From Naegleria gruberi (taxonomy: Eukaryota), in assembly GCA_000004985.1 (NCBI GenBank), contig GG738889.1: DNA of 64,000 nt. One strand, given 5' to 3'. The position numbers and the translations under genes were made by a program. A model generated the notes under the pieces. The model searched no databases, was not told where the DNA came from, and was given only the letters and a program-made list of their open reading frames with translations. Positions 1,368-52,320 of the stretch are shown in pieces; position 1 is the first letter of the stretch; each line of letters opens with the position of its first letter.

Positions 1368-3577
1368 ATGTCTGCCTCCTCTTTTTGTTTGAAAAATGTT
1401 TCATCTCTTGTTTCAAAGAGAAAAATTGCTCCGAGAAAGTTAATCTCCACTAACAAACAAGCTACCACCACTTCAGTAGTAGGATCGAGAAACTTTTCAT
1501 ATAGTATTTCGAGTTTACAATACCAAACTATGGTACATAAGATTTTACAACAATATGCACCTCAAGATCATGGTTTGGTGAGTTCTGGAGATTATTTGCA
1601 AATTACTCCTCATCATATTTTGACTCATGACAATACAAGGTTAGTAGAACAATGAGGAATTGCAATTTAATATTAATTGTGACCTTTTTCAGTGCTGTGA
1701 TGATTAAATTCAAAGCATTCTTTGAGGAAAGTAAGAAACCATTGAAATTCTCCAATCCAAAACAACCAGTTTTTGCTCTTGACCACAATATTCAAGACAC
1801 TTCAGATGCCAATCTTGTAAAATATAAGAAAATTGAACAATTTGCTAAGGATAATGGAGTTGTTTTTTATCCAGCTGGAAGAGGTATTGGTCACCAAGTT
1901 ATGATTGAAGAAGGTTATGCCTGGCCATTGACATTCACTACTGCTAGTGATTCTCACTCAAATATGTACGGTGGTATTGGTTGTTTGGGTACTCCAGTTG
2001 TCAGAACTGATGCTGCTGCCATTTGGGCAACAGGATCCACTTGGTGGCAAGTTCCACCAGTCACTAGAGTTGAATTGACTGGAAAATTGAGAGAAGGTGT
2101 CAGTGGAAAGGATGTTATTATTACATTGTGTGGAATTTTCAATCAGGATGATGTTTTGAATCATTGTGTGGAATTTGTAGGAGAAGGAGTTTCTTCATTA
2201 TCAATTGATGAAAGATTATCAATTGCTAACATGTAGGTTTTTGAACTATTTCAGTAGATATTAAACAAATTTAATAGGACCACTGAATGGGGTGCTCTTG
2301 CTGGTGTTTTTCCAGTCGATGAGAAGACCATTGATTGGCTTAAAAAGTCTCAAAAATCTGAAAAGGCCAATGATATTAAGGAATTGGAAAATAATTACAA
2401 GAAGTATTTACCAGATTCTGATGCTAAATATGTTCAAACCTTGACTTTGGATCTTGGAAGTGTTGAACCTCACGTTTCTGGCCCAAACCACGTCAAGGTC
2501 ATGTCAAGTGTTAGAGAAATCACCAAGAAGAATATTAAGGTCCACAAGGCTTACATTGTATCATGTGTTAACAGTAGAGTTAACGATTTACATCAAGCTG
2601 CCAACGTCATCAGAAAGAGTTCAAAGAAGACTATTGCTGAAGGAGTTGAACTGTACATTTCAGCTGCCAGTGACAAGGTTCAGAAGGAAAGTGAAAGACT
2701 TGGCGATTGGCAAGTTTTGGTTCAAGCTGGTGCCAAGGTTCTTCCACCAGGTTGTGGCCCATGTATTGGATTGGGTGCTGGTTTGTTAGAAGATGGACAA
2801 GTTGGTATCTCAAGTACAAACAGAAACTTTAAGGGTAGAATGGGTTCAAGAAATGCTGAAGCTTATTTGGCCTCACCAGAAGTTGTTATGGCCAGTGCTT
2901 TGAGTGGTGTCATTACTCTTCCTGAATATTATACTGAATCTCAAGCTCCATTACCAAAATTCACCAAGACTAGTGAAAATCAATCAGAGGGAGAAAAATC
3001 AACAACCAAGATTATTGAAGGATTCCCAGAAGTTATAGAAGGAGAAGTTGTTTTTGTTCATCAAGATAACTTGAACACTGATGGTATTTATCCTGGTAAA
3101 TATACTTATAAGGAAAATATTTCTCCAGAAGAACAAGCTCAAGTAGCTATGGAAAATTATGACGTCAACTTTACCAAGATTGCCAAGAAGGGTCACGTTC
3201 TTATTGCTGGTTACAACTTTGGTACTGGTAGCTCTAGAGAACAAGCTGCCACTTGTTTGAAATTTATGGGAATTAAATTGATTGTTGGTGGTAGTTTCAG
3301 TGAAACATACAAGAGAAATGCCACAAATAATGGTTTCTTGTGTATTGAAGTTCCAGCCCTCGTTGACTACTTGAAGCAATCTGTGGGAACTACTAAGGAA
3401 ACTGTTCTCTTGGAAAATAGCAAGATTAGTATTGATTTTAGAAATTCTACCCTTGTTTTAACAACTCCAAAAGAAACTAAGGAATACTCATTCCACCCTG
3501 TTGGCCCAGTTGCTCAAGAGCTTATTGTCTCGGGAGGTTTGGAACCTTTGGTCCTTAACAAGATCAAGAGTCAATAA
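1368..3577 (+). CDS. homoaconitase-like aconitase-family hydratase (alpha-aminoadipate lysine pathway), mitochondrial; 3 exons
   Basis: ATG at 1368. Exons 1368..1639, 1693..2232 and 2278..3577. Intron 1 runs GTTAGT..cag and intron 2 GTAGGT..aatag. This joins the track ORFs 1038-1655, 1652-2236 and 2384-3577. Diagnostic motifs are [59 protein letters not shown] and [12 protein letters not shown]. The N-terminus [19 protein letters not shown]... looks like a mitochondrial presequence. Assignment to homoaconitase (rather than LeuC or aconitase) rests on the [12 protein letters not shown]-type motif recalled from fungal LYS4. Confidence 0.75.
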
Positions 3578-14712: not shown

Positions 14713-16312
14713 ATGGTCAATCTGCTCTCTGTGCTTGTTGTTTTATTCTGCTTTCTTTTAATTTCATCACAATGCATCTCACAAGATATTCCTCCCTATC
14801 AAACTGGATTTTTCACACAACGATTAGATCACTTTGATTTTACCAACATTGCAACCTTTCCCCAACGTTATTTTGTTTGCGACCTCTATGTAAAGCATTC
14901 TACTCGTTCCTCCGTAATTGTAGATGATAACAACTTAATACAGATTGATCCTTTCATTCCAATCATTGCATATCCAGGAAATGAAGGTGCTTTGGAAGAG
15001 TTTTACGAAAATACAGGGCTTGTGTTTGAGTTGGCCAAATATTATGGAGCTCTTGTAATATTTATTGAACATCGTTTTTATGGAAAGACCATTCCACCAA
15101 ATCAAGATCCTCAAAGGTATCTCACCATTGAGCAAGCAACTCATGATTTGGCTGTGTTTTTCACTGAAAACTTTGGATTGGACGAAAAGAGAAAGAATCC
15201 AATAGTAAGTAATCTTAATTATTTTCAAGCTAAAGCTGTAAAGATTCTTGTTGGAGGTTCTTATGGTGGAGATTTAGCTGCTTGGTAAGTTACCTATTAA
15301 TGTCATCACAAATAATTATAATATTGCAATTAGGATGAGATTTAAATTTCCACACTTGATTGATGGCTCAATAGCAGCCAGTGCTCCTATTCTATTCTTC
15401 AATGGCATCACTCCTCCATATCTTGCTGCTCAAATTGCAACTGAGGCTTACAGAAATTTAACAAACTTTCAAATTTATCCTAAAATGACTTGTGACAGTG
15501 CAGTTAAAAAAGGATTTGAATTCTTGTCTAAATACTTTGAAAGTACAACATCTAAAGAGCAACTACAAATGCTCTCAAGAAAATTCAGACTCTGTAATGA
15601 AATGAAATCAAATTTGGAGGTCAAAGTGTTGGCTTCTTACATTGCATTTTCATTTGAAGTATTGGCTCAAGCCAACTATCCCTATCCAACCAACTTTTTT
15701 AACAATTTGCCTGCTTGGCCAGTGAATGGATTATGTACTTCAATAGCTAAGCATTTGGCCACCTCTCCAAATTTAGAGAGTGAAGATTTGTATTTTACAA
15801 TTCTATTTGATGGTGTCAATCTTTTCCAAAACTACACTGGCGACAAATCTTGTTTCAATACTAGCAATTTGGGTGGAGGATTACAATGGAACTCCTGGTC
15901 TCTTCAGCTTTGTAATGAAATGATCATTCCATCAGGTTTTTATCCTAGCACAGACATGTTCTTCTCCAATCCTTACAATTTGAAAGTCCAAATGAAGGCC
16001 TGTATGAGCAAGTACAAATTCAATCCACAACCGTATTGGTTGGCAACCTATTTTGGAGGGAAAAGAGCATTGACAGAACATTCCAATATAATATTCTCAA
16101 ACGGTCAGTATGATGCAGTGAGAGCTGGAAGTGTTGAAAAGGGAATGAAAACATCTCCATCCATAATTCCAATCTTCATTGAACAAGGAGGTCACCATTT
16201 GGATATAAGATGGTCAAATCCAAATGATCCACAATCTGTAAAAATTGCAAGAGAAATTGAATTTAAATATGTTGGCATTTGGATTCAAAAGTTTTTAAAT
16301 TCCCTCAATTAG
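14713..16312 (+). CDS. S28-family serine carboxypeptidase (lysosomal Pro-X carboxypeptidase / DPP7-like)
   Basis: ATG at 14713 with signal peptide MVNLLSVLVVLFCFLLISSQC. Motifs include DHFDFTN, YPGNEG and the catalytic GGSYGGDLAAW. Obligatory intron 15285..15333 (GTAAGT..attag) yields LAAW|MRFKFPHLIDGSIAASAPI, matching PRCP LAAWFRMKYPHMVVGALAASAPI. There are two further candidate in-frame mini-introns, 14890..14943 (54 nt) and 15205..15243 (39 nt). Confidence 0.8.
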
Positions 16313-17613: not shown

Positions 17614-18350
17614 ATGGAATCTACCGACGCTTTGCTCCCACAAGCTTTGGAGCGCATCAGAGAACCTGGTGATGATGCAATGCCAACTCTTCTCTCAATT
17701 ATTCTTGGTATTGTTGGAGTTACTCTTTTATTAGTTCTTGTTTTACCACTCTTCGGTGGTACCGTTGCTTTTGACGGTGAACAATGGGCATACATTTTCG
17801 CTGCTATTGATCCATATATTTTCTCTGCTGTTGGTACTGGATGTGTTATTGGTCTTTCTGTTATTGGTGCTGGTTGGGGTATCACTATTGCTGGTGCTTC
17901 TATTATGGGTGCCTGTGTTAGAGCCCCTCGTATCAAGACTAAGAACCTCATCAGTATTATTTTCTGTGAAGCTGTTGCTATCTACGGTATTATTATGGCT
18001 ATTGTCCTTTCAACACAAACCAAATGGTTCATGGATGATAAGGATTCCTCAAAGGTTACTCCTTGGCCAATTCTTGTTGGTTCATGTTATTCCTTGTTTG
18101 CTGCTGGTCTCACTGTTGGTTTAGGTAACATGGCCTGTGGTGCTTGTGTTGGTATTGTTGGTAGTGGTTGTGCTATTGCTGATGCTGCTGAACCATCATT
18201 GTTCGTCAAGATTTTGGTTGTCGAAATTTTCGCTTCTGCTTTAGGTATTTTTGCTATCATTGTTGGTATTGTTGTGGCATCTGGTAAGTTGAATAATGTT
18301 GAATGGTTTTTTCTAATGTTTAATTTTTAGGCGCAAAGATGGCTCCATAG
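17614..18350 (+). CDS. ATP6V0B: V-type H+-ATPase 21 kDa proteolipid subunit c''
   Basis: ATG at 17614. It has five hydrophobic segments and proteolipid motifs GAAYGTAK-like ([32 protein letters not shown]). Probable 3' intron 18284..18330 (GTAAGT..tttag) gives the C-terminus ...IVVASGAKMAP. The alternative unspliced end is at 18330. Confidence 0.8.
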
Positions 18351-19646: not shown

Positions 19647-19766
19647 GGCTACGGCCATATCACGATGAATGCACCTCATCCCGTCTGATTTGAGAAGTTA
19701 AGCATCGTCGAGCCACATCAATACTGAGGTTGGAGACAACTTGGGAACCTGTGGTGCTGTAGTCTT
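19647..19766 (+). rRNA. 5S ribosomal RNA gene
   Basis: GGCTACGGCCATATCACGATGAATGCACCTCATCCCGTCTGATTTGAGAAGTTAAGCATCGTCGAGCC...GGGAACCTGTGGTGCTGTAGTC matches the universal 5S consensus (GCCTACGGCCATACC...CCGATCTGCGAAGTTAAGC...GGGAATACCGGGTGCTGTAGGC). The 5' GGCUAC pairs with the 3' GUAGUC (helix I). A T5 run follows. Confidence 0.85.
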
Positions 19767-20212: not shown

Positions 20213-20431
20213 AGGAAGAGGCATTGAGCAAGTTCATTTATTGATTTTGAAATTGATCATCACGAAAAAAAATATTTTGGTTAAAGAAATTCATAAATTG
20301 ATCAAAATTGCTCAGTTGGAAATCAGTTCAACTTGTTCATCTCCTTTATGAAATTTTCTCCAATTTCTAGTATTTTTAATTGCTTCAATTCAATGATATC
20401 GCTTAAATGATACTTTGCATTTCTATGAAAC

Positions 20432-20610
20432 ATCTTTCTCGGCCAATTGGGTTTGATCGAGTGTAGTATCTTTTCTTTTCAGTGTAATAGCTGAAACCAG
20501 CCCACCACGGGTTGCCATTACTATTAACTCAATTTTTTGTAGGGTCCAGAGTTGTGCTTAATTGCACACATTGGTTGGCTTCAATCAGATATTGCACTGA
20601 TAGTCAGATT
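20432..20610 (+). ncRNA. U2 spliceosomal snRNA gene
   Basis: ATCTTTCTCGGCCAATTGGGTTTGATCGAGTGTAGTATCTTTTCTTTTCAGTGTAATAGCTGAAA aligns with human U2 AUCGCUUCUCGGCCUUUUGGCUAAGAUCAAGUGUAGUAUCUGUUCUUAUCAGUUUAAUAUCUGAUA, including the GUAGUA branch-point-pairing box. The Sm site AATTTTTTG is at 20531. A terminal hairpin ATCAG-ATATTGCA-CTGAT resembles the human stem-loop IV loop UAUUGCA. Confidence 0.8.
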
Positions 20611-20696
20611 TAGAGCTATCCCACTTGAAAATAGAAAAGTTGAGTACTTTACACTATATTGAATGTTTTGGTGTTTAGAAAGGATATTATCAATAT

Positions 20697-25124: not shown

Positions 25125-25833
25125 CTAAGCATATTGGTAATAACCATTCATTTCTATCATTTTCGTCTCTTCTTCATTAGAGTGCTTGTTGTATCGAATT
25201 GTTTGAGCTATTAAGATGGTAACAAGTCCAACCATAGAAATGCACAGCACTGAAACCACTATTGCAAGAATAGTGATTGCTATATCTTGACCTTGGTCAC
25301 TGGATATATGGACTGAATCACTTGGTTTTGGATGATAGTTGGTTCTGGTCTTGGAGGAGTTGGAGTTGGAGGAGTAAGAACTTTGGCAACAATCAACAAG
25401 TCATACCTTTCAATTAGAATAGTTTCTGAACATTTAAGAGTGATAATTGTTCCATTCTTAATGTCCTTAATTCCATAAATAACTCTATCAGATAGAATGT
25501 AGACACATTGAAGTGATGAAATGTCAGATATCGTATTTCCATTCATGTCTCTCAACTGATCAGTGAATGTGAAAGTTCTATCTGTAAGAATGTCAGATTT
25601 AACTGTTTGTACAATGGAAAAACCTTTAACCTTTTGAAAACCTTCCAACAGAGTTGAATCATGATTTCTTTATNNNNNNNNNNNNNNNNNNNNNNNNNNN
25701 NNNNNNNNNNNNNNNNNNNNNNNTTGTCATTACCTCTCCTCTCACAGCATGCATGATGCAGTGAATTGTTAAGAGTGCCAATGAGCACCACTACACGTTT
25801 AAGGATGCCCACTGCTATTGAAAATAACAACAA
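25125..25833 (-). CDS. predicted type I membrane protein (signal peptide, Thr/Pro stalk, one TM, short tail), broken by a scaffold gap and a probable frameshift
   Basis: ATG at 25833..25831 gives MLLFSIAVGILKRVVVLIGTLNN (signal-peptide-like), then the N gap 25674-25723. The main ORF 25280-25648 ends ...TPPTPTPPRPEPTIIQNQVIQSIYPVTKVKI*. The +2 frame stays open across that stop and encodes QDIAITILAIVVSVLCISMVGLVTILIAQTIRYNKHSNEEETKMIEMNGYYQYA* (TM plus tail), with a stop at 25127..25125. Confidence 0.4.
25674..25723. other. assembly gap (50 N)
   Basis: Run of N. Confidence 1.
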
Positions 25834-32213: not shown

Positions 32214-34905
32214 TTATTGTTGGACTGGAGCTTGTTGTTGTTGTTGTGGAGGAGCTTGTTGCTGTTGTTGTTGAGGAGCTTGTTGCTGTTGTGGAATTTG
32301 TAAATTCATACCATAGTTCATCATTGCATCCATGTAAGGATCTCCTAATGAAGTCTGACCAGGTTGACTTCCATATTGAGATGGTTGTGTTTGACCTGGG
32401 TATCTACCATTAAACACCAAAGGTGAACCAGAAGTTGGAGAACCACCATTAATGGAAACGAAAGGTTGAGGGTTATTGTTATACGTTTGTTGTTGGTAAG
32501 GATCATAACCACCTTGTCCATAACTTTGTGGATATTGTTGACCGTATCCTTGTTGAGGATATTGTTGACCATATCCTTGTTGAGGATATCCTTGTTGTGG
32601 ATATTGTTGACCATATCCTTGTGAGGGTAACCTGTGNNNNNNNNNNNNNNNNNNNNNNNNNNNNNNNNNNNNNNNNNNNNNNNNNNGGTATGAGTGATGA
32701 AATTTGTCCTTGATGTCATTTGCAATGGATTCCTTGTTGGTGAACTATCAATTTTTGGATACGAGTACTATATCAGAAATATTGAATAATTTGAATTTCT
32801 TCTTGGATTATGCATTATCAGATGAAAATGTGAGAGTTTCAGTAGGTGTGGATACCTTACTTGATAATTGTATTGAATCTGCTTACAAATATATTAAGGA
32901 TCGTCAATATGTCAACAATCAGACTTCAAACTCTTATTATTTACATGCTGCACTCAAGAAAATATCCATGCTTCAAGCAAGAAGCTCTGCAATTGGAAGT
33001 TCTGGAAAGAGTAAGAAGGGTCCTTTCTTTTCTTCTGTTTTACATAGGAATACTGTATATGATTTCCCAAAATCTATTATTGACCCTGTTACAGAATCTA
33101 AAATAGTATTCTATTCTGATTTCTTTTCATTTGCTACTTTAAGTTCAACGATTGTGAAGAAACCTTTCGTTTCAGTACTGACCGTTTCGGATGATGTGTT
33201 TTCACTGAATAGTAGACTGGAAATGACTCATATATCTGAAAGTCAAACCACGTATTCGAAACTTATTTCTAGAATTGTGTCTATTGATTTCTCAGAACTG
33301 CCAGTTCAAGTAAATGGGAGTAAGATTTCCTACATCATTCCTTATAACACTACTGACAAAGAAGAACCAGCTCAATTTGCCAATTTAGAGTTACTTGAAA
33401 AGAACACAACTGTCACTTGTGGAGATTTCAGAAATGGATCACCAACCATCTTGAGAAGTGATTGCACATTACAAACAAGAAATACCACTCATGTGGTTTG
33501 TACATGTGTTAGTTTTACAAATGTCTTTGTTGTAGAAACTACAGTTGTGACCTATCATTCCTATGTCTATGTGGTTGCCATTGTAGTTTCTTCCATTGTA
33601 GCTTGTGTTTTATTCTTGCTGATTGCTATTGGTGTACTCGTCTCGATCATTAAAATTAGGAGAAACAAAGGAACAACTGCCAACAAACCAGAAACAGTAA
33701 CAAATACTTCAACCTTCTCACTCAGAGTTCAGGAAGTTGAAATTGAAACATCATCCTATGGAAGGGGTCAAACNNNNNNNNNNNNNNNNNNNNNNNNNNN
33801 NNNNNNNNNNNNNNNNNNNNNNNCTGTTGACCATATCCTTGTTGTGGATATTGTTGAGAATATTGTTGAGGATATCCTTGTTGTTGAGGGTAACCTTGTT
33901 GTTGCATTTGTTGAGGATATCCTTGTTGTTGTGGATATTGTTGCATTCCTTGTTGAGGGTAACCTTGTTGTGGATATTGTTGAGCATAACCTTGTTGTTG
34001 TGGATTTCCCTGTTGATAGCCAGGATAACTAACACCAACTCCAGCATTTATCAATGGAACAGTTGTTTGACCTCCTTGTTGAGTAGCTTGACCATATTGA
34101 CCTTTAATTTGGGTCATGTATTGAGTAAGGGTCGAAATAGATTGTTGCAAGCTGCTCCAATTAGCTTGTTGAGTAGATGTAACCATACTAGCAACGAGAG
34201 GTGTAATTTTATCCTTAATGAGGGCTGCATCATCTTGATCCAACAATGAAGGATCTGCTGCCAACAATTTGAGATTAGTATCAATGGTATTTACAGCATT
34301 ACTAACAAGGGCACAAGGGGAAATTGTTGACTGAGAAACAGGTTGTTGGCTTACTCCTTGTTGAGTATTTGGTTGCATGCCACCTTGTTGTTGAGGATAA
34401 CCTTGTTGCATTTGTTGAGGATAACCTGTTGTTGCATATTAGGCTGCATTTGTTGCATTCCTTGTTGAGGACTTTGTTGCTTTACTCCTCTGGTAATTCT
34501 AGTTTGTCCAATTGGAGTTGGAGGAGCTTGACCTTGTGGAGCAGGTTGATTTGGATTGGAACTCATTTGAATAGTTGGCTGTTGTTGGGATTGTTGAGAT
34601 TGTTGAGAGAAACAATATTGACCCAATCTATTAATCATGGAAATTTGAGTATTAATATTGTTAACATAGACACCAAGCTTGTTACTACTGGATTGCTGTG
34701 GTTGTTGGGATTGTTGGGATTGTTGAGATTGTTGAGGTTGTTGTGGTTGTTGCGGTTGCTGAGGTGGCTGAGGTTGCTGAGATTGCGACGGTTGAGTAGC
34801 TGCTTGTGCATTTGCTGAGGCAGATGCATCCTGAGCATTCACAACACTCAAGGCAACTAGACATAACACGAGGGATAAGCCCAATATATACTTTGGAGTG
34901 ATCAT
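32214..34905 (-). CDS. secreted Gln/Tyr/Pro-rich repeat protein (QQGYPQQ / GYGQQYPQQ repeats), interrupted by two gaps, an inserted foreign contig and a 1-nt frameshift
   Basis: ATG at 34905 gives a signal peptide, MITPKYILGLSLVLCLVALSVVNAQD, then a Q/S/P-rich region. An apparent single-G deletion near 34418 sits in ...caacagGttatcctcaacaa. Next comes a helical block, NAVNTIDTNLKLLAADPSLLDQDDAALIKDKITPLVASMVTS...QIKGQY, and a QQGYPQQ repeat array running into the gap at 33823. The same repeat frame resumes after the gap at 32636 (GYGQQYPQQGY...) and runs to the stop at 32216..32214 (...QQQQQAPVQQ*). Confidence 0.5.
32637..32686. other. assembly gap (50 N)
   Basis: Run of N. Confidence 1.
32687..33773 (+). 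pseudogene. isolated ~1.09 kb contig, between two gaps, that is a near-identical copy of the 3' part of the receptor gene (51055..52142); probable mis-scaffolded allelic/paralogous fragment
   Basis: The track ORF 32704-34032 protein (MSLMSFAMDSLLVNYQFLDTSTISEILNNLN...HVVCTCVSFTNVFVVETTVVTYHSYVYV...SYGRGQ) matches ORF 50569-52320 residues from about 164 onward, with only scattered substitutions. The nucleotide sequence 32687.. versus 51055.. differs at only a few percent of sites by eye. The copy ends exactly at the N runs on both sides and is embedded, on the opposite strand, inside the Q-rich repeat gene. Confidence 0.6.
33774..33823. other. assembly gap (50 N)
   Basis: Run of N. Confidence 1.
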
Positions 34906-37337: not shown

Positions 37338-40300
37338 TTATGATATTTTTTTTAAAATGGTGACAGAATTTAATCGGAGTTCTTTAATGGTATCGGAAAC
37401 GGAAGTGTTTATTTGAAAATTGTAACTGATCTGATTACATTCTTNNNNNNNNNNNNNNNNNNNNNNNNNNNNNNNNNNNNNNNNNNNNNNNNNNNNNNNN
37501 NNNNNNNNNNNNNNNNNNNNNNNNNNNNNNNNNNNNNNNNNNNNNNNNNNNNNNNNNNNNNNNNNNNNNNNNNNNNNNNNNNCTGGTACCCAAGGTGCTG
37601 GTGGATTACATCCACCAATTGGTTCAATATCATCAGAGTGAGTAATTACGAGGGAATAATTTTGGTTCTTCAGCAATTTGTAAGCTGTTACTGAAACACC
37701 AACAAGTATGTCTTCATCAATTTCCTCAATTCTGACCTTTTCAACGTTATTTAAGTGATCACCGTCTGAGTTGTCATTTCCTGGATATCTAGTTGATCTT
37801 GTACTATTTTCTGAGAATACATAGGCATTCAAATCCAAATCTTGATAAAGCTCAAACTTGGTACTTGTGGCAGCCATGTCATACCAAGCAATTGTGGCAT
37901 ATAGGAATGTAGATCCAGAAGATGGTGATCTACCTGCAACTCTTCTAAAGCAATAGTTTTGTGTTTGACTTTGTGTGATGGTCTTTCTATCAACTGTGAA
38001 TAATTCAAAGGTTGAACCAACAAATTTAAGAACTGAAGACAAGGAAACGAGACCAAATCCAGTATAAGCATTTGGATAACCCATCTTTTTAAGGTCAGAC
38101 ATTGAGCCTCTTCCATCAAGTGACACCATACCCTTCAATGGTTGTGAGGAATGAACAAGGGTGGCTTTAAGCAATGGTCCAGATGGATTACTATGAACAG
38201 TACGAGTCATAAAATATTCACGAATGAGAGCTGTAACATGTTAATAAAAATTCAAATAATTCAATGATAACATACCCAAACTTGATGCAACTAGAGGTGT
38301 TGCCATGGAAGTTCCTCTGAGTGTCAATACAGATGCTTTGTTAGTTGGGGTTGGTCTTCCTGTTCCACATTGGAAAGTACTGAGACTACCATCAGAGTGC
38401 ATAGATTCAATTTCATAACCAGGAGCAACAAGATCAGGTTTGATTCTGTTACCAATTGCTGGTCCACGTCCAGAGAAGTAAGCTAAATTTTCCTTTGTAA
38501 AGTATTTCTTACTGTCAGAGTAAGTCTTCTTCATAAAAGTGCTGCAGCACAATGATTTAACAAGGTTGGTCTGGTCATCTGTTGTTCCCTTAAAGTTACA
38601 ACATTCCTCTTCTGATGAAACCTTGATGGCTTGGAAAATACTGGTAAAATCAACATGGTCAACTGCACTGATAAAACCGTCATTTGTAGTTTGAGAAGCA
38701 CCAACACTGATAACATTCTTTGAGGTGGTTGGACTACCAATATTACCAACATCAGATGTATGTCCTTCGTTACCAGCTGCAAATAAGACAACAAAATCAT
38801 CATGATCCCATGTGAATTTGTCGATATCTTGAGCTTTGGTATCATAGGTATTACAAATTTGGCAGCAAGATTTTCCAAACATTGTTTTACAGAAATCATT
38901 TGAAACAGTCTCTCCTGTTTTACCATAGTCTGTATCAATTGCCCATTTACAATTACAATTATATTTACAATTAAACACTGCAGAGAAAGAACATCCCCAA
39001 CTATTGGAATGGATTCTCACGTTTGCCTTTTGATATGGAATCTTGAACAAGTAATTGTACAAATCAGGTGGAATGAGAAGACTACTTCCTCCAGTTTTCA
39101 TAATGTCAGTAAAGAAGAGCTTGGCACCTGGTGCACCTCCATTATACTTTTTAAGATCTGAAAAAGTATCTGCACTTGTCAAAATGCTTCCAGCAATACT
39201 GCCAGCAACGTGAGTACCATGTCCATCACCACCATCTTGATCGTCTGACTTGTAAATATTTCCATACTTATCTTCGAGAGCCACAGTTTGATAAGAGACA
39301 ATCTTTCTGTGTTCCATATTGACAGTGTTGACTGGAACTTCATTATCAGGATCATGGAAGAAGCATTGGTCAGAATCAATACCAGTATCAGCTACACCAA
39401 CTACAACTCCCTTTCCTGTAATTCCATTCTCCCAAATGAATAAATTTGAGCTAGAATTGGCAGTGGTTGGAGTATCAGCATTAATTCCTTGCATAATAAT
39501 ATTTGGATAATAGTTCATGAGAGTGTATGGAAGTTGTCTTTCAACGCTTTGGATAGCATCATGTTTCATGATAATCTTCATGGCTTCAGAGGCAATCTTT
39601 GGAGAACAAGTGAACCCGATTCTATCTTGACCTTCCTTCTTGACTGAAAAGAATAGTGGTTCTTCATCCTTGGATAATTTGGCAATTTCGTTTGAGAACT
39701 TTTCTTGCAATTCCTTATTCAACTGAGAGACAATTGTTTCTGTTTCCTTTTCAATTGTTTCATCGAGAATGGCTCTCAAACTTGGAGTAATAGTGGCAAA
39801 AACTGAAATATGTGAAACAATAGATGATGCCACTGCACGAGTATGCCTATTTAGATTGGAATTTGCCGACTCGAATCTAGTTAATTTTTCAAGAGTTTCC
39901 TCCAATGTAGTTTCCTTAATTTCTGTTTGAGTCGTGGCAGCTTTGTTTTCCCACATTTCCTGCATCTTGGTAAAATCAAGATTGGATTTGAATTTAGAAT
40001 CAACTCTTCCAATCCACTCGATAGTGGATCCATACTCTGTTTCAATAGAGGCAAGTTTGGCCAACTCGGACATTTCGGATGGTGTTGCTCTAATAGCAAG
40101 GAGAACACCATTGGAAAGTGTTCCAATAATTGAATGCTCCAAAGCTTTTCCGAGTCTGTTGGCGGTAATTGCTACATTATTTACAGTATTAGTATTTACA
40201 GTCAATGCATTCAAGAGAGCACCATTAAACTTTGATAAATCCAAATTTGAGCTAGTTAATCTTACAAAGTATTGAATTGGTTCTTCTTTAGAATCTCTTG

Positions 40301-41037: not shown

Positions 41038-41670
41038 ATGTTTAGTGGAAAGGCATCGGAAATTATTCCTGGCCAATTGTATCTAGGTAAGAAGAAGTAA
41101 CTGAAATATAATTAATTTAATTAATTTAATTTAGGAAGTATGGCCTCCGCTAGAAGAGTATTAGATATGGAAACTCTTAATATCGGTTCGATTGTGAATT
41201 GTACTTGTGAGGTTCCGAATTATTATGAAAATCATGAAGAAATTGCTGTAAAATATATGAAAGTTGAAATTGATGATAATGCCTACCAGGATATTTCAAA
41301 ACACTTTGATGCTACATTTGAGTTTATTAGTAACAGTATTGAAAATGAAGGTAAAGCTGTTTTGGTTCATTGTCAGGCAGGTATTTCAAGAAGTTCAACA
41401 ATTGTAATTGCATATCTGATGAGGAAATTGGATATTTCTCTCAAAGATGGTAAGTAGTTCATCACCAGTTTTTTGGAATTTCATTTAGCTTTTGTTAAAG
41501 TTAGAAATTGTAGAAGTATAATCATGCCAAATATGGGATTTTACAAACAACTGTTAGAATATGAGATGAAATTGAGAGGAGTTCAATCTTTGGAAAGAAA
41601 TCAATATTATGAATTGAGTTTTATTGAAAATTCATTGTTTAATATTTATTCCAGTAATATACAGAATTAA
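41038..41670 (+). CDS. dual-specificity protein phosphatase (small, about 182 aa); 3 exons
   Basis: Exon 1 (41038..41086) is MFSGKASEIIPGQLYL. Intron 41087..41134 (GTAAGA..atttag). Exon 2 (41135..41449) is GSMASARRVLDMETLNIGSIVNCT...VLVHCQAGISRSSTIVIAYLM, with the HCxxGxxRS signature. Intron 41450..41488 is only 39 nt (GTAAGT..catttag). Exon 3 (41489..41670) is AFVKVRNCRSIIMPNMGFYKQLLEYE.... Confidence 0.75.
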
Positions 41671-41702
41671 ATTGGGATTTTACATGGGCTATGTTTGGAT
41701 AT

Positions 41703-47935: not shown

Positions 47936-48355
47936 TTATTCCGATAAATGTTTGATAGCAGCTGCATTTTCCTCCCAATTTTCACCATCAAACTTTTCCA
48001 CCTGATAATCCACCTTGCATTCATCCACAATACATCTCATATTGACACTCCAACCATCGGGATTACTTCTCGGCTTGTAGAAGGTACAAATTCCACACTT
48101 TGGACAAAAGTAGTGCTTTGCCACATGTGTCTGGAAGGTGTAGCAACCTAAATCACTCAATGATGAAGGACTTTTCAATACAAAATTACTCTCACTTACA
48201 ATGTGATGGAGGAAACCTTTCTTTTTGCATATGGAACAATTACAATCGAGAACTTGGAGGTTTTGAAGAGATTCGGGAGATTGTGCTGTTTCGCATTGCA
48301 TGAAACCACAATGGCATGAGAAGGTGAGTATTTGCATTTTTTTATTGTAAAACAT
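47936..48355 (-). CDS. GFA / CENP-V-like zinc-binding protein
   Basis: ATG at 48355, with an alternative ATG at 48339 (MQILTFSCHCG). The Cys ladder (CHCG...C...CNCSIC...C...CPKCG...C) is typical of the glutathione-dependent formaldehyde-activating / Mss4-like fold. Confidence 0.55.
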   Translation of the reverse strand: MFYNKKMQILTFSCHCGFMQCETAQSPESLQNLQVLDCNCSICKKKGFLHHIVSESNFVLKSPSSLSDLGCYTFQTHVAKHYFCPKCGICTFYKPRSNPDGWSVNMRCIVDECKVDYQVEKFDGENWEENAAAIKHLSE

Positions 48356-48706: not shown

Positions 48707-51700
48707 ATGCCAATTTTCATAAGGAGAACTACTGGGAGAGAACATTGTTTATGTAATACTAATAGTGAGGGATTGAGTAGGAGCTTGAAATCATCGCATT
48801 CACCTCAATATAATATTAATATTTCACAAAACTCATCATCAATTACTTCATCAAAACCTGCTTCATCGATGGTGAGGAATAAGACTACTATTTATACATC
48901 GATATTTCATATATTAGTTGTATGTCTATTCTTCCTACCAACTTGGTTTGCAGTTGTACTTTATGTGAATGCCCAAAATCAACCTTTCACATGTGGTGGC
49001 TATCTACCTGACGATGATAGAGTTTGTAATTTTAGAAAGGGAATGTGTATTGGAGAGGATATATGTGTTTGTTCAAATGGATTTCAAGGAGATTCCTGTT
49101 CTATAACCACATGTTTTGGTATAAGGTCAGATTCAACAAGTGTTTGTTCTGGAAGTGGATATTGTGAATCGTTGAATAATTGTACTTGTACATTGGGTTG
49201 GAAAGGTATTGCGTGTAATGAAAGAGTTTCAGATAGGAATAATCAATACAGAGCTTTGGAATCAAATAATTCCACAATTTCAGAGAATGTTGACTTTATC
49301 GAGGCAGTAATTACAATGCCAAATGTCAACCAATTCAGTTCATGTGGAGCCATTTCAGTAGATGGTTCTTCAAGTCACTCAGCAGATGGGAGACCATTAA
49401 TATATTATTGGTTGTTATTTGATTCGAAAATGAATTTACTTGCAGATAACTTCCCTCACCAACCAATCATTACTCTAGAATCGAGTATTCCATCAGGATC
49501 TTATAGAGTGGGATTGATAGTTCAGAATACTGTCTTGAAAATCAATAGTTCTATAACTGTTTCTCCAATTTTCACAAAGGCAACTTCACCACTTCCAATG
49601 TTGACCATGTATAGGGGAGAAACAGTGATTGAAAAGTATTCGAATGAGTTTCCAATAACATTGAAGAAGATTGTGAGTGATTCTTCATGTAAATCCTCAC
49701 AAGATGTTCTCCATATTGAATGGACCCAATTGAGTGGACCTTTCATCAATCACACTATTGATACTTTCAATAATTTGCATATTCCAAAGTTGAAAGTCTT
49801 TGGAAATTACACATACCTATTTAGAGTTTCAACATTTTACAAAATAAGTGCTAAAGTTTCTTTGAATGTGACTTTGAGTACAAATTCACCAAAATTGGAA
49901 TTGAATATTTTACAAACTGAATCTACAAGTGAGTTGACCACTTTACAAATTGATTATGTAGATCCAGAAGCTTTATATAATGAAGAATCGACAGAAGTTT
50001 GGAAATGGACTTCATCCAATCAAAGTCCTCAACTCTTAACAATACAAAATTTGTCCAAATCAAAATCTTTACAATTTTCAATTTCTTCTAAATTATTGGA
50101 AACAAGGGCTGATTCCATTATTTTAACTTTGGAAATTAGAAAGAGTGATGGAAGAAGTGTTCAAAAATCAACAACCATCAACTTTAACAATATTCCTCCT
50201 CTTGTAAATATTGTAAATATTGAACCACCTTCAAATGTCATTTTACCAGGTCAGCTCATTCCGATTCAAACTTTGACAATTTCAAACTCTTCGAACACAA
50301 CATGGATTCTGAATGGTAAGATTGTTGATTCTTCTTCCATTATCCAACAAGCTTCTCCAGGAATGGAAACAAATACCATCCTAATTGACTCTTCAAATTT
50401 GGAAGAAGGATCAGTCAACTCTTTAACAATAATTACCTATGATACCAAGACTGGTCTGTCAACACAGAATAGCCATTCATTCCGAGTAGCACAAATTGTA
50501 AGACAATTGATAACAATATTGATTACAGATATGGTTTTATAGACGATAGATCTCAATCAAAGATTGTAATGTACAATTTGGGAGAAGTTTACTCAACCAA
50601 AATGCCATCTCCTTTTACTGGAACATCTGTCACTTGTTTCTTTGATATTGTGGACAAAACCACAGGCGCATTCTCAACAACCTATTCCAATGTCACCATT
50701 TACAAACCAATCATTCAAAACTTTGCTGATATCCAATCAATTGTCCAAAAATGGGAAGATCAATCCATTCCCTATTCCTTAGATGGTGATTTCAGTAAGA
50801 GCATCTACCAATCAGCTTCCACTTCAAGAACTGATGCAGTTTTATTGAAAGAGGCCATGTTATCCAATAGTAGAAGTCATAGCCGTAAAGTTTCTGTTAT
50901 ATGCCTTAATGGTGTTGAAGTTTCAGGCGAGTGCAAATGTAAGGATGGTTGGATGGGGCAACGTTGTGAAATTTCCATTGGGGACTTTTCAAATATTCAA
51001 GGAACAAAGCTTTCAATATTGAGAGATATGATGTTTGTGGTGAATAGAACATATGGTATGAGTGATGAATATTTGTCCTTGATGTCATTTGCAATGGATT
51101 CCTTGTTAGTGAACTATCAATTTTTGGATACGAGTACTATATCAGAAATATTGAATAATTTGAATTTAATCTTGGATTATGCATTATCAGATGAAAATGT
51201 GAGAGTTTCAGTAGGTGTGGATACCTTACTTGATAATTGTATTGAATCTGCTTACAAATATATTAAGGATCGTCAATATGTCAACAATCATACTTCAAAC
51301 TCTTATAACTTACATGCTGCACTCAAGAAAGTATCCATGCTTCAAGCAAGAAGCTCTGTAATTGGAAGTACAGGAAAGAGTAAGAAGGGACCTTTCTTTT
51401 CTTCTGTTTTACATAGGAATACTGTTTATGATTTCCTAAGATCTATTATTGATCCTATTTCAGAGTGTAAAATAGTATTCGATTCTTATTTCTTTTCATT
51501 TTCTACTTTAAGTTCAACGATTGTGAAGAAACCTTTCGTTTCGGTGCTGACAGTTTCAGATGATGTGTTTTCACTGAATAGCAGATTGGGAATGACTCAT
51601 AAATCTGAAAGTCAAATCACGTATTCGAAACTTATTTCTCGAATAGTGTCAATTGATTTCTCAGAGTTACCAGTTCAAGTACATGGGAGTAAGATTTCCT

Positions 51701-52320
51701 ACATCATTCCTTATAACATTACTGACAAAGAAGAACCAGCCCAATTTACCAATTTGGAGTTAGCTGAAAAGAACACAACTGTCAGTTGTGGAGATTTCAG
51801 AAGTGGATCACCAACCATCTTGAGAAGTGATTGCACATTACAAACAAGAAATACCACTCATGTGGTTTGTACATGTGTTAGTTTTACAAATGTCTTTGTT
51901 GTAGAAACGACAGTTGTGACCTATCATTCCTATGTCTATGTGCTTGCCATTGTAGTTTCTTCCATTGTAGCTTGTGTTTTATTCTTGCTGATTGCTATTG
52001 GTGTACTAGTCACTATCATCATTAAAATTAGGAGAAACAAAGGAACAACTGCCAACAAACCAGAAACAGTAACAAATACTTCAACCTTCTCACTCAGAGT
52101 TCAGGAAGTTGAAATTGAAACATCATCCTATGGAAGGGGTCAAACACCTCTTGGTGTTTACGATACCATTACTCCACAAGAAAAATCTAATAGCTTTGCA
52201 GTTCAATCTGTTTATCATATGAATCGTAAGAGATCACAAGTGATTCCTCTTCGTATCGACTTGTTAGATGAGAAGTATTGTGATAACTTGTCGAGTAACG
52301 GATCTGATTGCGAATTATAA
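48707..52320 (+). CDS. large single-pass (type I) receptor-like protein, about 1180 aa: EGF-like modules, GAIN-like domain with GPS-like Cys motif, TM helix, cytoplasmic tail; 2 exons
   Basis: ATG at 48707, with an in-frame alternative at 48869 (MVRNKTTIYTSIFHILVVCLFFLPTWFAVVLYVNAQ, a signal/anchor). The EGF-like part is CIGEDICVCSNGFQGDSCSITTCFG...CESLNNCTCTLGWKGIACNE. A 65-nt intron 50498..50562 (GTAAGA..tcaaag, phase 0) joins the track ORFs 48707-50542 and 50569-52320 as ...RVAQI|IVMYNLGEVY.... A second EGF follows (CLNGVEVSGECKCKDGWMGQRCE), then a helical subdomain and the GPS-like motif C(SCG)DFRSGSPTILRSDCTLQTRNTTHVVCTCVSFTNVFVVE. The TM helix VYVLAIVVSSIVACVLFLLIAIGVLVTIII precedes a 95-aa tail. 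Confidence 0.65.

Follow-up and report, generated by a model that had tools for sequence, protein, structure and literature searches.

The subject of this analysis is NAEGRDRAFT_71237, a peptidase S28 (PRCP/DPP7-like) gene located at 14713..16312 (+), with its ATG at 14713 and its TAG at 16310-16312, in a 64,000-nt stretch of Naegleria gruberi contig GG738889.1 (assembly GCA_000004985.1), hereafter the window. Its coding region contains two segments, segment 1 at 14890..14943 (+; 54 nt, GTAAAG...ATACAG, reading VKHSTRSSVIVDDNNLIQ) and segment 2 at 15205..15243 (+; 39 nt, GTAAGT...GTAAAG, reading VSNLNYFQAKAVK). As the original prediction described, both are bounded by GT and AG, have a length divisible by three and are free of stop codons in frame, and both stand in phase 0. 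The two are probably of different nature, segment 2 being a constitutive 39-nt intron and segment 1 a translated loop. Segment 2 is a conventional U2-type GT-AG phase-0 intron which is already part of the public gene model. Segment 1 is probably coding, and is most likely a lineage-specific loop insertion of 18 amino acids. From genomic sequence and homology we infer that segment 2 would be removed constitutively, joining ...KRKNPI to ILVGGSYGG..., the putative beta strand leading into the catalytic serine, and that segment 1 would be translated, lengthening by 18 residues a variable surface hairpin loop ahead of the GNEG motif. The length of segment 2, divisible by three, and its stop-free frame would then be coincidental.

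The public model of the gene comprises three exons, 14713-15204, 15244-15284 and 15334-16312 (+). Translation of the gene without 15205-15243 and 15285-15333 gives a protein of 503 amino acids identical to XP_002673620.1 / EFC40876.1 / D2VQI5. The second of these intervals is a 49-nt intron (15285..15333, +; GTAAGT..ATTAG, phase 2) that had been called obligatory and is so, its retention shifting the frame and its sequence being absent from the public protein. Four isoforms of the S28 protein are possible with respect to the two segments, and all were looked up exactly in a collection of 15 billion sequences, where only the 503-aa form, with segment 1 kept, was present; exact look-ups of the other three isoforms and of the exon open reading frames (ORFs) found nothing besides this public form. 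Since XP_002673620.1 is the isoform lacking segment 2 and containing segment 1, the former is already annotated as an intron and the latter as coding. The 39-nt intron and the coding call on the 54-nt segment are therefore already known. For twelve proteins of the window, identical N. gruberi entries exist in NCBI/UniProt, all of them from one scaffold of 348,446 nt, and this set includes a BBS2 homologue, homoaconitase, a cytochrome P450, a TRAF-type protein and a CENP-V/GFA protein.

The case for segment 2 as an intron begins with an alignment of 58 sequences, in which all 57 S28 homologues show a gap exactly where its 13 codons lie. The residues in question (165-177) are the only query-specific insertion of 13 residues in this alignment, match segment 2 exactly, and constitute one of just three query-specific insertions across the whole S28 protein. 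At this point the query reads ...NPI[13]ILVGGSYGG, the bracketed number standing for the 13 residues, where the homologues read ...SPV-IAFGGSYGG. The spacing from Q141 to G181 is 26 amino acids if segment 2 is spliced and 39 if it is retained, compared with 24-29 in the homologues. Segment 2 stands out because of this nucleotide-exact coincidence with a homology gap.

Splice sites and composition were scored against a reference set of 17 introns of the window, assembled by joining of ORFs plus homology. Their lengths range from 39 to 137 nt (median 48). The donor consensus is GTAAGT, with A at +3 in 16 of the 17, G at +5 in all 17 and T at +6 in 16, and the acceptors are TAG (12 introns), AAG (3 introns, for example TTGTAAAG in an annotated P450 intron) and CAG (2 introns). 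The GC content of these introns is 0.13-0.35, with a median of 0.24, against a coding mean of 0.35; their C content is 0.085 across 939 intron bases (per-intron median 0.08), against a coding mean of 0.16. The window itself has about 33% G+C and its genes are densely packed. Eight of the 17 belong to models (BBS2, homoaconitase, P450 and TRAF) which translate exactly to public proteins, and such exact matches back ten introns when the 49-nt reference intron of the S28 gene and segment 2 are counted with those eight.

The donor of segment 2, GTAAGT, has a position weight matrix (PWM) score of 7.3, within the 3.1-12.3 of the reference introns, and only 0.86% of the GT sites in ORFs reach this value. 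The GC content of segment 2 (0.26) is intron-like and falls in the lowest 14% of coding windows. A further element is the Naegleria fowleri gene FDP41_011688, the closest homologue with retrievable DNA, which is interrupted, within the codon that aligns with I165, by an intron of 72 nt (GTAAGT..TTTAG) lying 2 nt downstream of the segment 2 site. This intron splits ...DEKRTTPV-I-AFGGSYGG just ahead of the nucleophile strand, as the segment 2 site does. It is unlike segment 2 in length (72 versus 39 nt, and not divisible by three) and in phase (2 versus 0), and the two S28 proteins are 42% identical, a paralogue-level relationship, with their other introns at different sites. The closest N. fowleri counterpart of the S28 gene is at this 42%, none being closer. 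The proposal that segment 2 is an intron is thus borne out by the public model, the exact gap in 57 of 57 homologues, the donor, the GC content and the N. fowleri intron 2 nt away.

That segment 2 is coding as well, forming a lineage-specific insertion of 13 residues with the public intron call in error, is highly improbable. The open frame, a codon score at the 35th percentile of coding windows and an acceptor scoring under all reference introns are consistent with it. Against it, the borders of the insertion match a GTAAGT donor and an AG acceptor to the nucleotide, the site is uninterrupted in every one of the 57 homologues, the motif ...P-[VI]-I-x-x-GGSYGG is restored by splicing only, N. 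fowleri has an intron at the homologous site, and the GC content is that of an intron.

The borders of segment 1 are of another kind. Its donor, GTAAAG, has A at +5 and G at +6, the two positions at which the reference introns carry G and T almost without exception; its PWM score of -2.6 lies under all 17 of them and is not exceeded by 60% of random GT sites in ORFs. The acceptor scores 2.9, inside the reference range. The statement of the original prediction that the segments have consensus splice borders thus holds for the donor of segment 2 only, given the deviations of the segment 1 donor at +5 and +6 and a segment 2 acceptor under all 17 references. The composition of segment 1 is exon-like, with a GC content of 0.35, equal to the coding mean and to the maximum of the reference introns, and a C content of 0.20, and in codon log-likelihood ratio it ranks at the 32nd percentile of coding windows. 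The N. fowleri homologue FDP41_011688 has no intron at the segment 1 site.

The loop in which segment 1 lies is the most length-variable part of the region in the S28 family, as in the Dictyostelium homologue. Homologues vary between 17 and 25 amino acids there, so insertions are tolerated at this place. The homology gap at segment 1 can be placed anywhere in the variable loop, its placement being ambiguous, and because of this freedom some fitting GT..AG pair is likely to occur by chance. In the AlphaFold2 (AF2) model segment 1 forms a surface loop with a mean pLDDT of 66 for residues 61-70 and of 86 for residues 71-80. If translated, segment 1 would yield the peptide SSVIVDDNNLIQIDPF..., including the tryptic peptide SSVIVDDNNLIQIDPFIPIIAYPGNEGALEEFYENTGLVFELAK, and if spliced it would give the junction-spanning sequence ...YFVCDLYIDPFIP... 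An alternative intron within segment 1, shorter and ending at the acceptor TGTAG, was considered and rejected, being 34 nt long and out of frame.

Several observations weigh against segment 2 as a constitutive intron and segment 1 as a translated loop. The loop between Y53 and G89 has 35 amino acids with segment 1 and 17 without it, and with segment 1 it exceeds the longest of the 57 homologues by 10. The public annotation, which calls segment 1 coding, is unreliable on mini-introns, missing both introns of a dual-specificity phosphatase (DUSP) gene and the RNA-confirmed intron at 18284-18330. The acceptor of segment 2 has a PWM score of -0.5, under all 17 reference introns (minimum 1.0), although it ends in AAG like 3 of the 17, and by codon log-likelihood ratio segment 2 resembles coding sequence, ranking among the top 8.5% of stop-free intron windows. 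The reference set is small (17) and was partly ascertained via the patterns GT[AG]NG and GTAA, so rare donor types may be under-sampled. Finally, no transcript-derived sequence of the S28 gene was identified in the collections queried.

The loop length is also the chief point for the possibility that both segments are constitutive introns, the true protein having 485 amino acids and the public model containing 18 spurious residues, with the gene predictor missing a 54-nt intron that has a weak GTAAAG donor. This is unlikely. Without segment 1 the loop falls within the range of the homologues, the Pfam S28 score climbs from 216.5 to 230.0 bits, the segment 1 acceptor scores within the reference range and the public annotation misses other mini-introns of the window. 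However, the donor lacks G at +5 and T at +6, composition and codon usage are those of an exon, GT..AG segments scoring equally well occur at about 10 per kb of ORF, a chance fit of a GT..AG pair is likely in a variable loop, and the N. fowleri site has no intron. The gain in Pfam score is simply the cost of an insertion of 18 residues: removing segment 1 adds 13.5 bits, similar to the 11.8 added by removing the 13 residues of segment 2. The proposal that segment 1 is an intron is not supported: loop length relative to the homologues is all that speaks for it, while its donor, its composition, its public annotation and the lack of an N. fowleri intron at the site favour coding sequence.

The improved alignment to PRCP that had been reported holds, removal of each segment raising the fit both to PRCP and to the family profile, Pfam S28 (PF05577). 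The scores are 204.7 bits with both kept, 218.5 and 216.5 bits with one removed and 230.0 bits with both removed, the 216.5 bits belonging to the public form of 503 amino acids (segment 2 out, segment 1 in). Profile positions 1-433 of 434 are covered, and 216.5-230 bits against a cut-off of 25 constitute a full-length S28 match.

The border pattern itself was assessed in the 38.8 kb of long ORFs of the window, where 1,634 in-frame GT..AG segments of 36-75 nt were found. Those scoring at least as high as segment 2 numbered 46 (1.2 per kb) and those scoring at least as high as segment 1 numbered 386 (10 per kb). The GT..AG border pattern alone is no more than expected by chance, and the splice-site PWM alone was rejected as a discriminator given these decoy counts. 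Among the 17 reference introns, 5 are stop-free when read in phase 0, so that about 10% of phase-0 mini-introns would by chance be both divisible by three in length and stop-free. All six reference introns with a length divisible by three carry in-frame stops, but a stop or a frameshift was a requirement for entering this set. The hexamer GTAAGT was also rejected as proof of an intron. The CENP-V/GFA gene (47936-48355, -) has a coding GTAAGT at 48199, within ATT GTA AGT GAG, and its intron-less translation is exactly the public protein.

The remaining explanation is alternative processing of one or both segments, giving two in-frame isoforms, with segment 1 acting as an exitron or segment 2 being retained in a form that escapes nonsense-mediated decay (NMD) and adds 13 residues. 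According to Marquez et al. (2015, PMC4484396), an exitron is a stretch inside a coding exon that undergoes alternative splicing, resembles exons in composition and has weak splice sites. Segment 1 shares the exitron anatomy described there (PMC4484396), as it lies inside an annotated coding exon, is bounded by GT and AG, has a length divisible by three, has no stop, and combines weak sites with exon-like composition. Exitrons are in addition defined by alternative splicing (PMC4484396), and the likeness of segment 1 is one of static anatomy. Chance is expected to produce such anatomy, as in segment 1, at about 10 instances per kb of ORF. Segment 2 is unlike an exitron, and the suggestion that it may be one is excluded by definition, since it is an annotated intron with intron-like composition.

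Segment 2 belongs instead to the class of introns that NMD would not see if they were retained (PMC5014332, PMC4484396), being short, divisible by three in length and without an in-frame stop. Ciliates and other eukaryotes are reported to be depleted of short stop-free introns of such lengths, which are selected against because their retention escapes NMD (Jaillon et al. 2008, as relayed in PMC5014332 and PMC4484396). A survey based on RNA-seq lists 10,688 annotated introns for N. gruberi, and its supplement (PMC6142364) gives 122 retained introns versus 2,534 scored as not retained. Retention in this organism is rare by these figures, amounting to 1.1% of the 10,688 annotated introns and 4.6% of the 2,656 that were assessable (PMC6142364).

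If segment 2 were retained, its 13 residues would be placed between I164 and I165, at the start of the predicted strand 164-169 and five residues ahead of the catalytic Ser170 (503-aa numbering), where none of the 57 homologues has a residue. Alternative processing would be favoured by the open frame and length of both segments, the exitron anatomy of segment 1, codon scores that are coding-like for both, and the occurrence of retention in N. gruberi. It is nevertheless very unlikely: the collections searched yielded no transcript evidence, anatomy of this kind is expected to arise by chance, the composition of segment 2 is intron-like and not exon-like, the insertion would fall at a position where no homologue carries any residue, and published retention in N. 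gruberi is rare. No result of the analysis shows alternative retention or splicing of either segment, and retention is not needed to explain the sequence.

Taken more broadly, a genuine 54-nt intron or exitron at segment 1, retention of the 39-nt intron at a meaningful level, or both, is unlikely. If it were true, the public protein would contain 18 spurious or optional residues, with segment 1 spliced from the non-consensus GTAAAG donor, or retention of the 39-nt intron would give an isoform invisible to NMD with 13 extra residues before the strand of the catalytic serine. Either would be the first documented pair of in-frame splice isoforms in a heterolobosean hydrolase.

Related sequences were also sought beyond the exact look-ups. 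In a scan of JGI metagenomes and metatranscriptomes with six peptide patterns of the S28 protein no relative was found, and a homologue search with the N-terminal 201 residues returned nothing above 46% identity outside the known cluster. A metagenome contig of ENA (ERZ929261) is 99.4% identical over 3.9 kb, with 23 differences, of which segment 2 contains one (15231 T>A, a synonymous change if coding) and segment 1 contains none. These 23 differences are too few to tell the evolution of an intron from that of an exon. In the same comparison the S28 coding sequence has 6 nonsynonymous and 2 synonymous differences and the upstream gene 0 and 3, a pattern that suggests relaxed or diversifying selection on a divergent paralogue.

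As a discovery the result has little weight, and what is useful in it is methodological. Without support from homology or RNA, introns or exitrons cannot be recognised by GT..AG borders, a length divisible by three and an open frame, since ORFs contain this combination too often. In the compact AT-rich genome of N. gruberi, mini-introns of 39-71 nt are the norm. The annotation of 2010 has weaknesses in neighbouring genes, with the DUSP model truncated at a missed 39-nt intron and the proteolipid model reading through a spliced 47-nt intron. Apparently no genome-wide test for a depletion of stop-free introns of lengths divisible by three in Naegleria, as a signature of NMD surveillance, has been published.

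The S28 protein was modelled in its 503-aa form, with segment 1 in, and the AF2 model has a pLDDT of 91.8 and a pTM of 0.90. The best PDB match of the model is human PRCP (3n2z), followed by 3jyh, with target-normalised TM scores of 0.88-0.92, and both the model and these matches have the alpha/beta-hydrolase fold with the S28 helical insertion domain. The human lysosomal Pro-X carboxypeptidase PRCP (3n2z) matches the S28 protein over nearly its full length with E=4.5e-75, and its fold compares with the AF2 model at a target-normalised TM of 0.92 and a root-mean-square deviation of 2.5. Identity to PRCP (3n2z) and DPP7 (3jyh) is just 32-36%. Compared with these two proteins the N. gruberi loop ahead of GNEG is 18 residues longer if segment 1 is coding, and the N. 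gruberi protein deviates in places from the family motifs, for example in YPGNEGA, GGDLAAW and NGQYDAV. Ser183 (in GGSYGG), Asp451 and His478/His479 (516-aa numbering) occupy invariant columns of the 58-sequence alignment. Ser183, Asp451 and one of the two histidines would, by analogy with PRCP, form the candidate catalytic triad.

Very short introns had been proposed to be real in this genome, and they are, as the 17 reference introns, the public proteins and one RNA-seq contig attest. Mini-introns of 39-71 nt are typical within the window. A minimum intron length clearly above 54 nt, which would have counted against the two candidates, was looked for in the window and is not the case, introns reaching down to 39 nt. 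For the strain NEG-M, published values (PMC8296547) are a genome size of 41 Mb, a GC content of 33%, 1.7 exons per gene and introns of 203 bp on average.

The sole mini-intron of the window backed at the RNA level is the intron of 47 nt at 18284..18330 (+), near the 3' end of the V-ATPase proteolipid gene. The Logan RNA-seq contig SRR32586211_65927 is 99.1-99.9% identical to the window and lacks exactly those 47 nt, its junction reading ...CATCTG|GCGCAAAG... After the loss of the 47 nt the contig of SRR32586211 encodes ...ASGAKMAP in the proteolipid gene, and the public proteolipid model NAEGRDRAFT_80877 (238 aa; 17614-18350, +) reads through the intron. The first approximately 208 nt of SRR32586211_65927 have no match in the window, and the assembly may be chimeric.

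The DUSP gene contains two introns, a first one of 48 nt at 41087..41134 (+; GTAAGA..TTTAG, with an in-frame TAA) and one of 39 nt at 41450..41488 (+; GTAAGT..TTTAG, with an in-frame TAG). Once the first is spliced out, the DSPc domain regains its N-terminal start, 'IIPGQLYLGS'. The need of this gene for the 39-nt intron had been pointed out before and was found to hold, given the in-frame TAG and the completion of the DSPc domain on splicing; the spliced model covers profile positions 1-132 of 133 in one stretch with E=5e-37. With both introns spliced, the gene (41038-41672, +) encodes 181 amino acids including a complete DSPc domain. The public model NAEGRDRAFT_71250 (XP_002673627.1, 105 aa) starts at an internal methionine and ends at the TAG inside the 39-nt intron, and appears to be truncated by the two missed mini-introns.

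Two RNA genes lie about 700 nt apart between protein-coding genes, a 5S rRNA gene at 19647-19765 (+; 99.5 bits) and a U2 spliceosomal snRNA gene at 20430..20623 (+). The latter matches Rfam RF00004 over its full length (1-192) with 92.7 bits against a gathering threshold of 46. It is of interest solely as context, the major spliceosome being encoded in the neighbourhood of the S28 gene.

The homoaconitase gene (1368-3577, +) has two mini-introns, one of 53 nt with a GTTAGT donor and one of 45 nt. Its heterolobosean matches have 61-82% identity and the next best are homoaconitases of bacterial metagenome-assembled genomes at about 60%, which hints that the enzyme may be of bacterial type in this lineage. 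In the cytochrome P450 gene (26169-27071, -) all three introns (59, 43 and 58 nt) share the start GTAAGTTTTT and a TTGACC. For the pattern TTGACCNATTG, 0.36 occurrences are expected in the window and 3 are found, two of them within the P450 introns. This could reflect a shared intronic signal, a branch-site-like motif or related intron origins.

Runs of N were identified at 25674-25723, 32637-32686, 33774-33823 and 37445-37582, and a gap of 138 N breaks the C-terminal part of a subtilase gene. Between two gaps of 50 N lies a 1.09-kb block (32687-33773) which is 95% identical to 51055-52145, in the gene at 50569-52320. Either this block is a paralogue of recent origin, or the scaffold includes an allelic or misplaced contig there.

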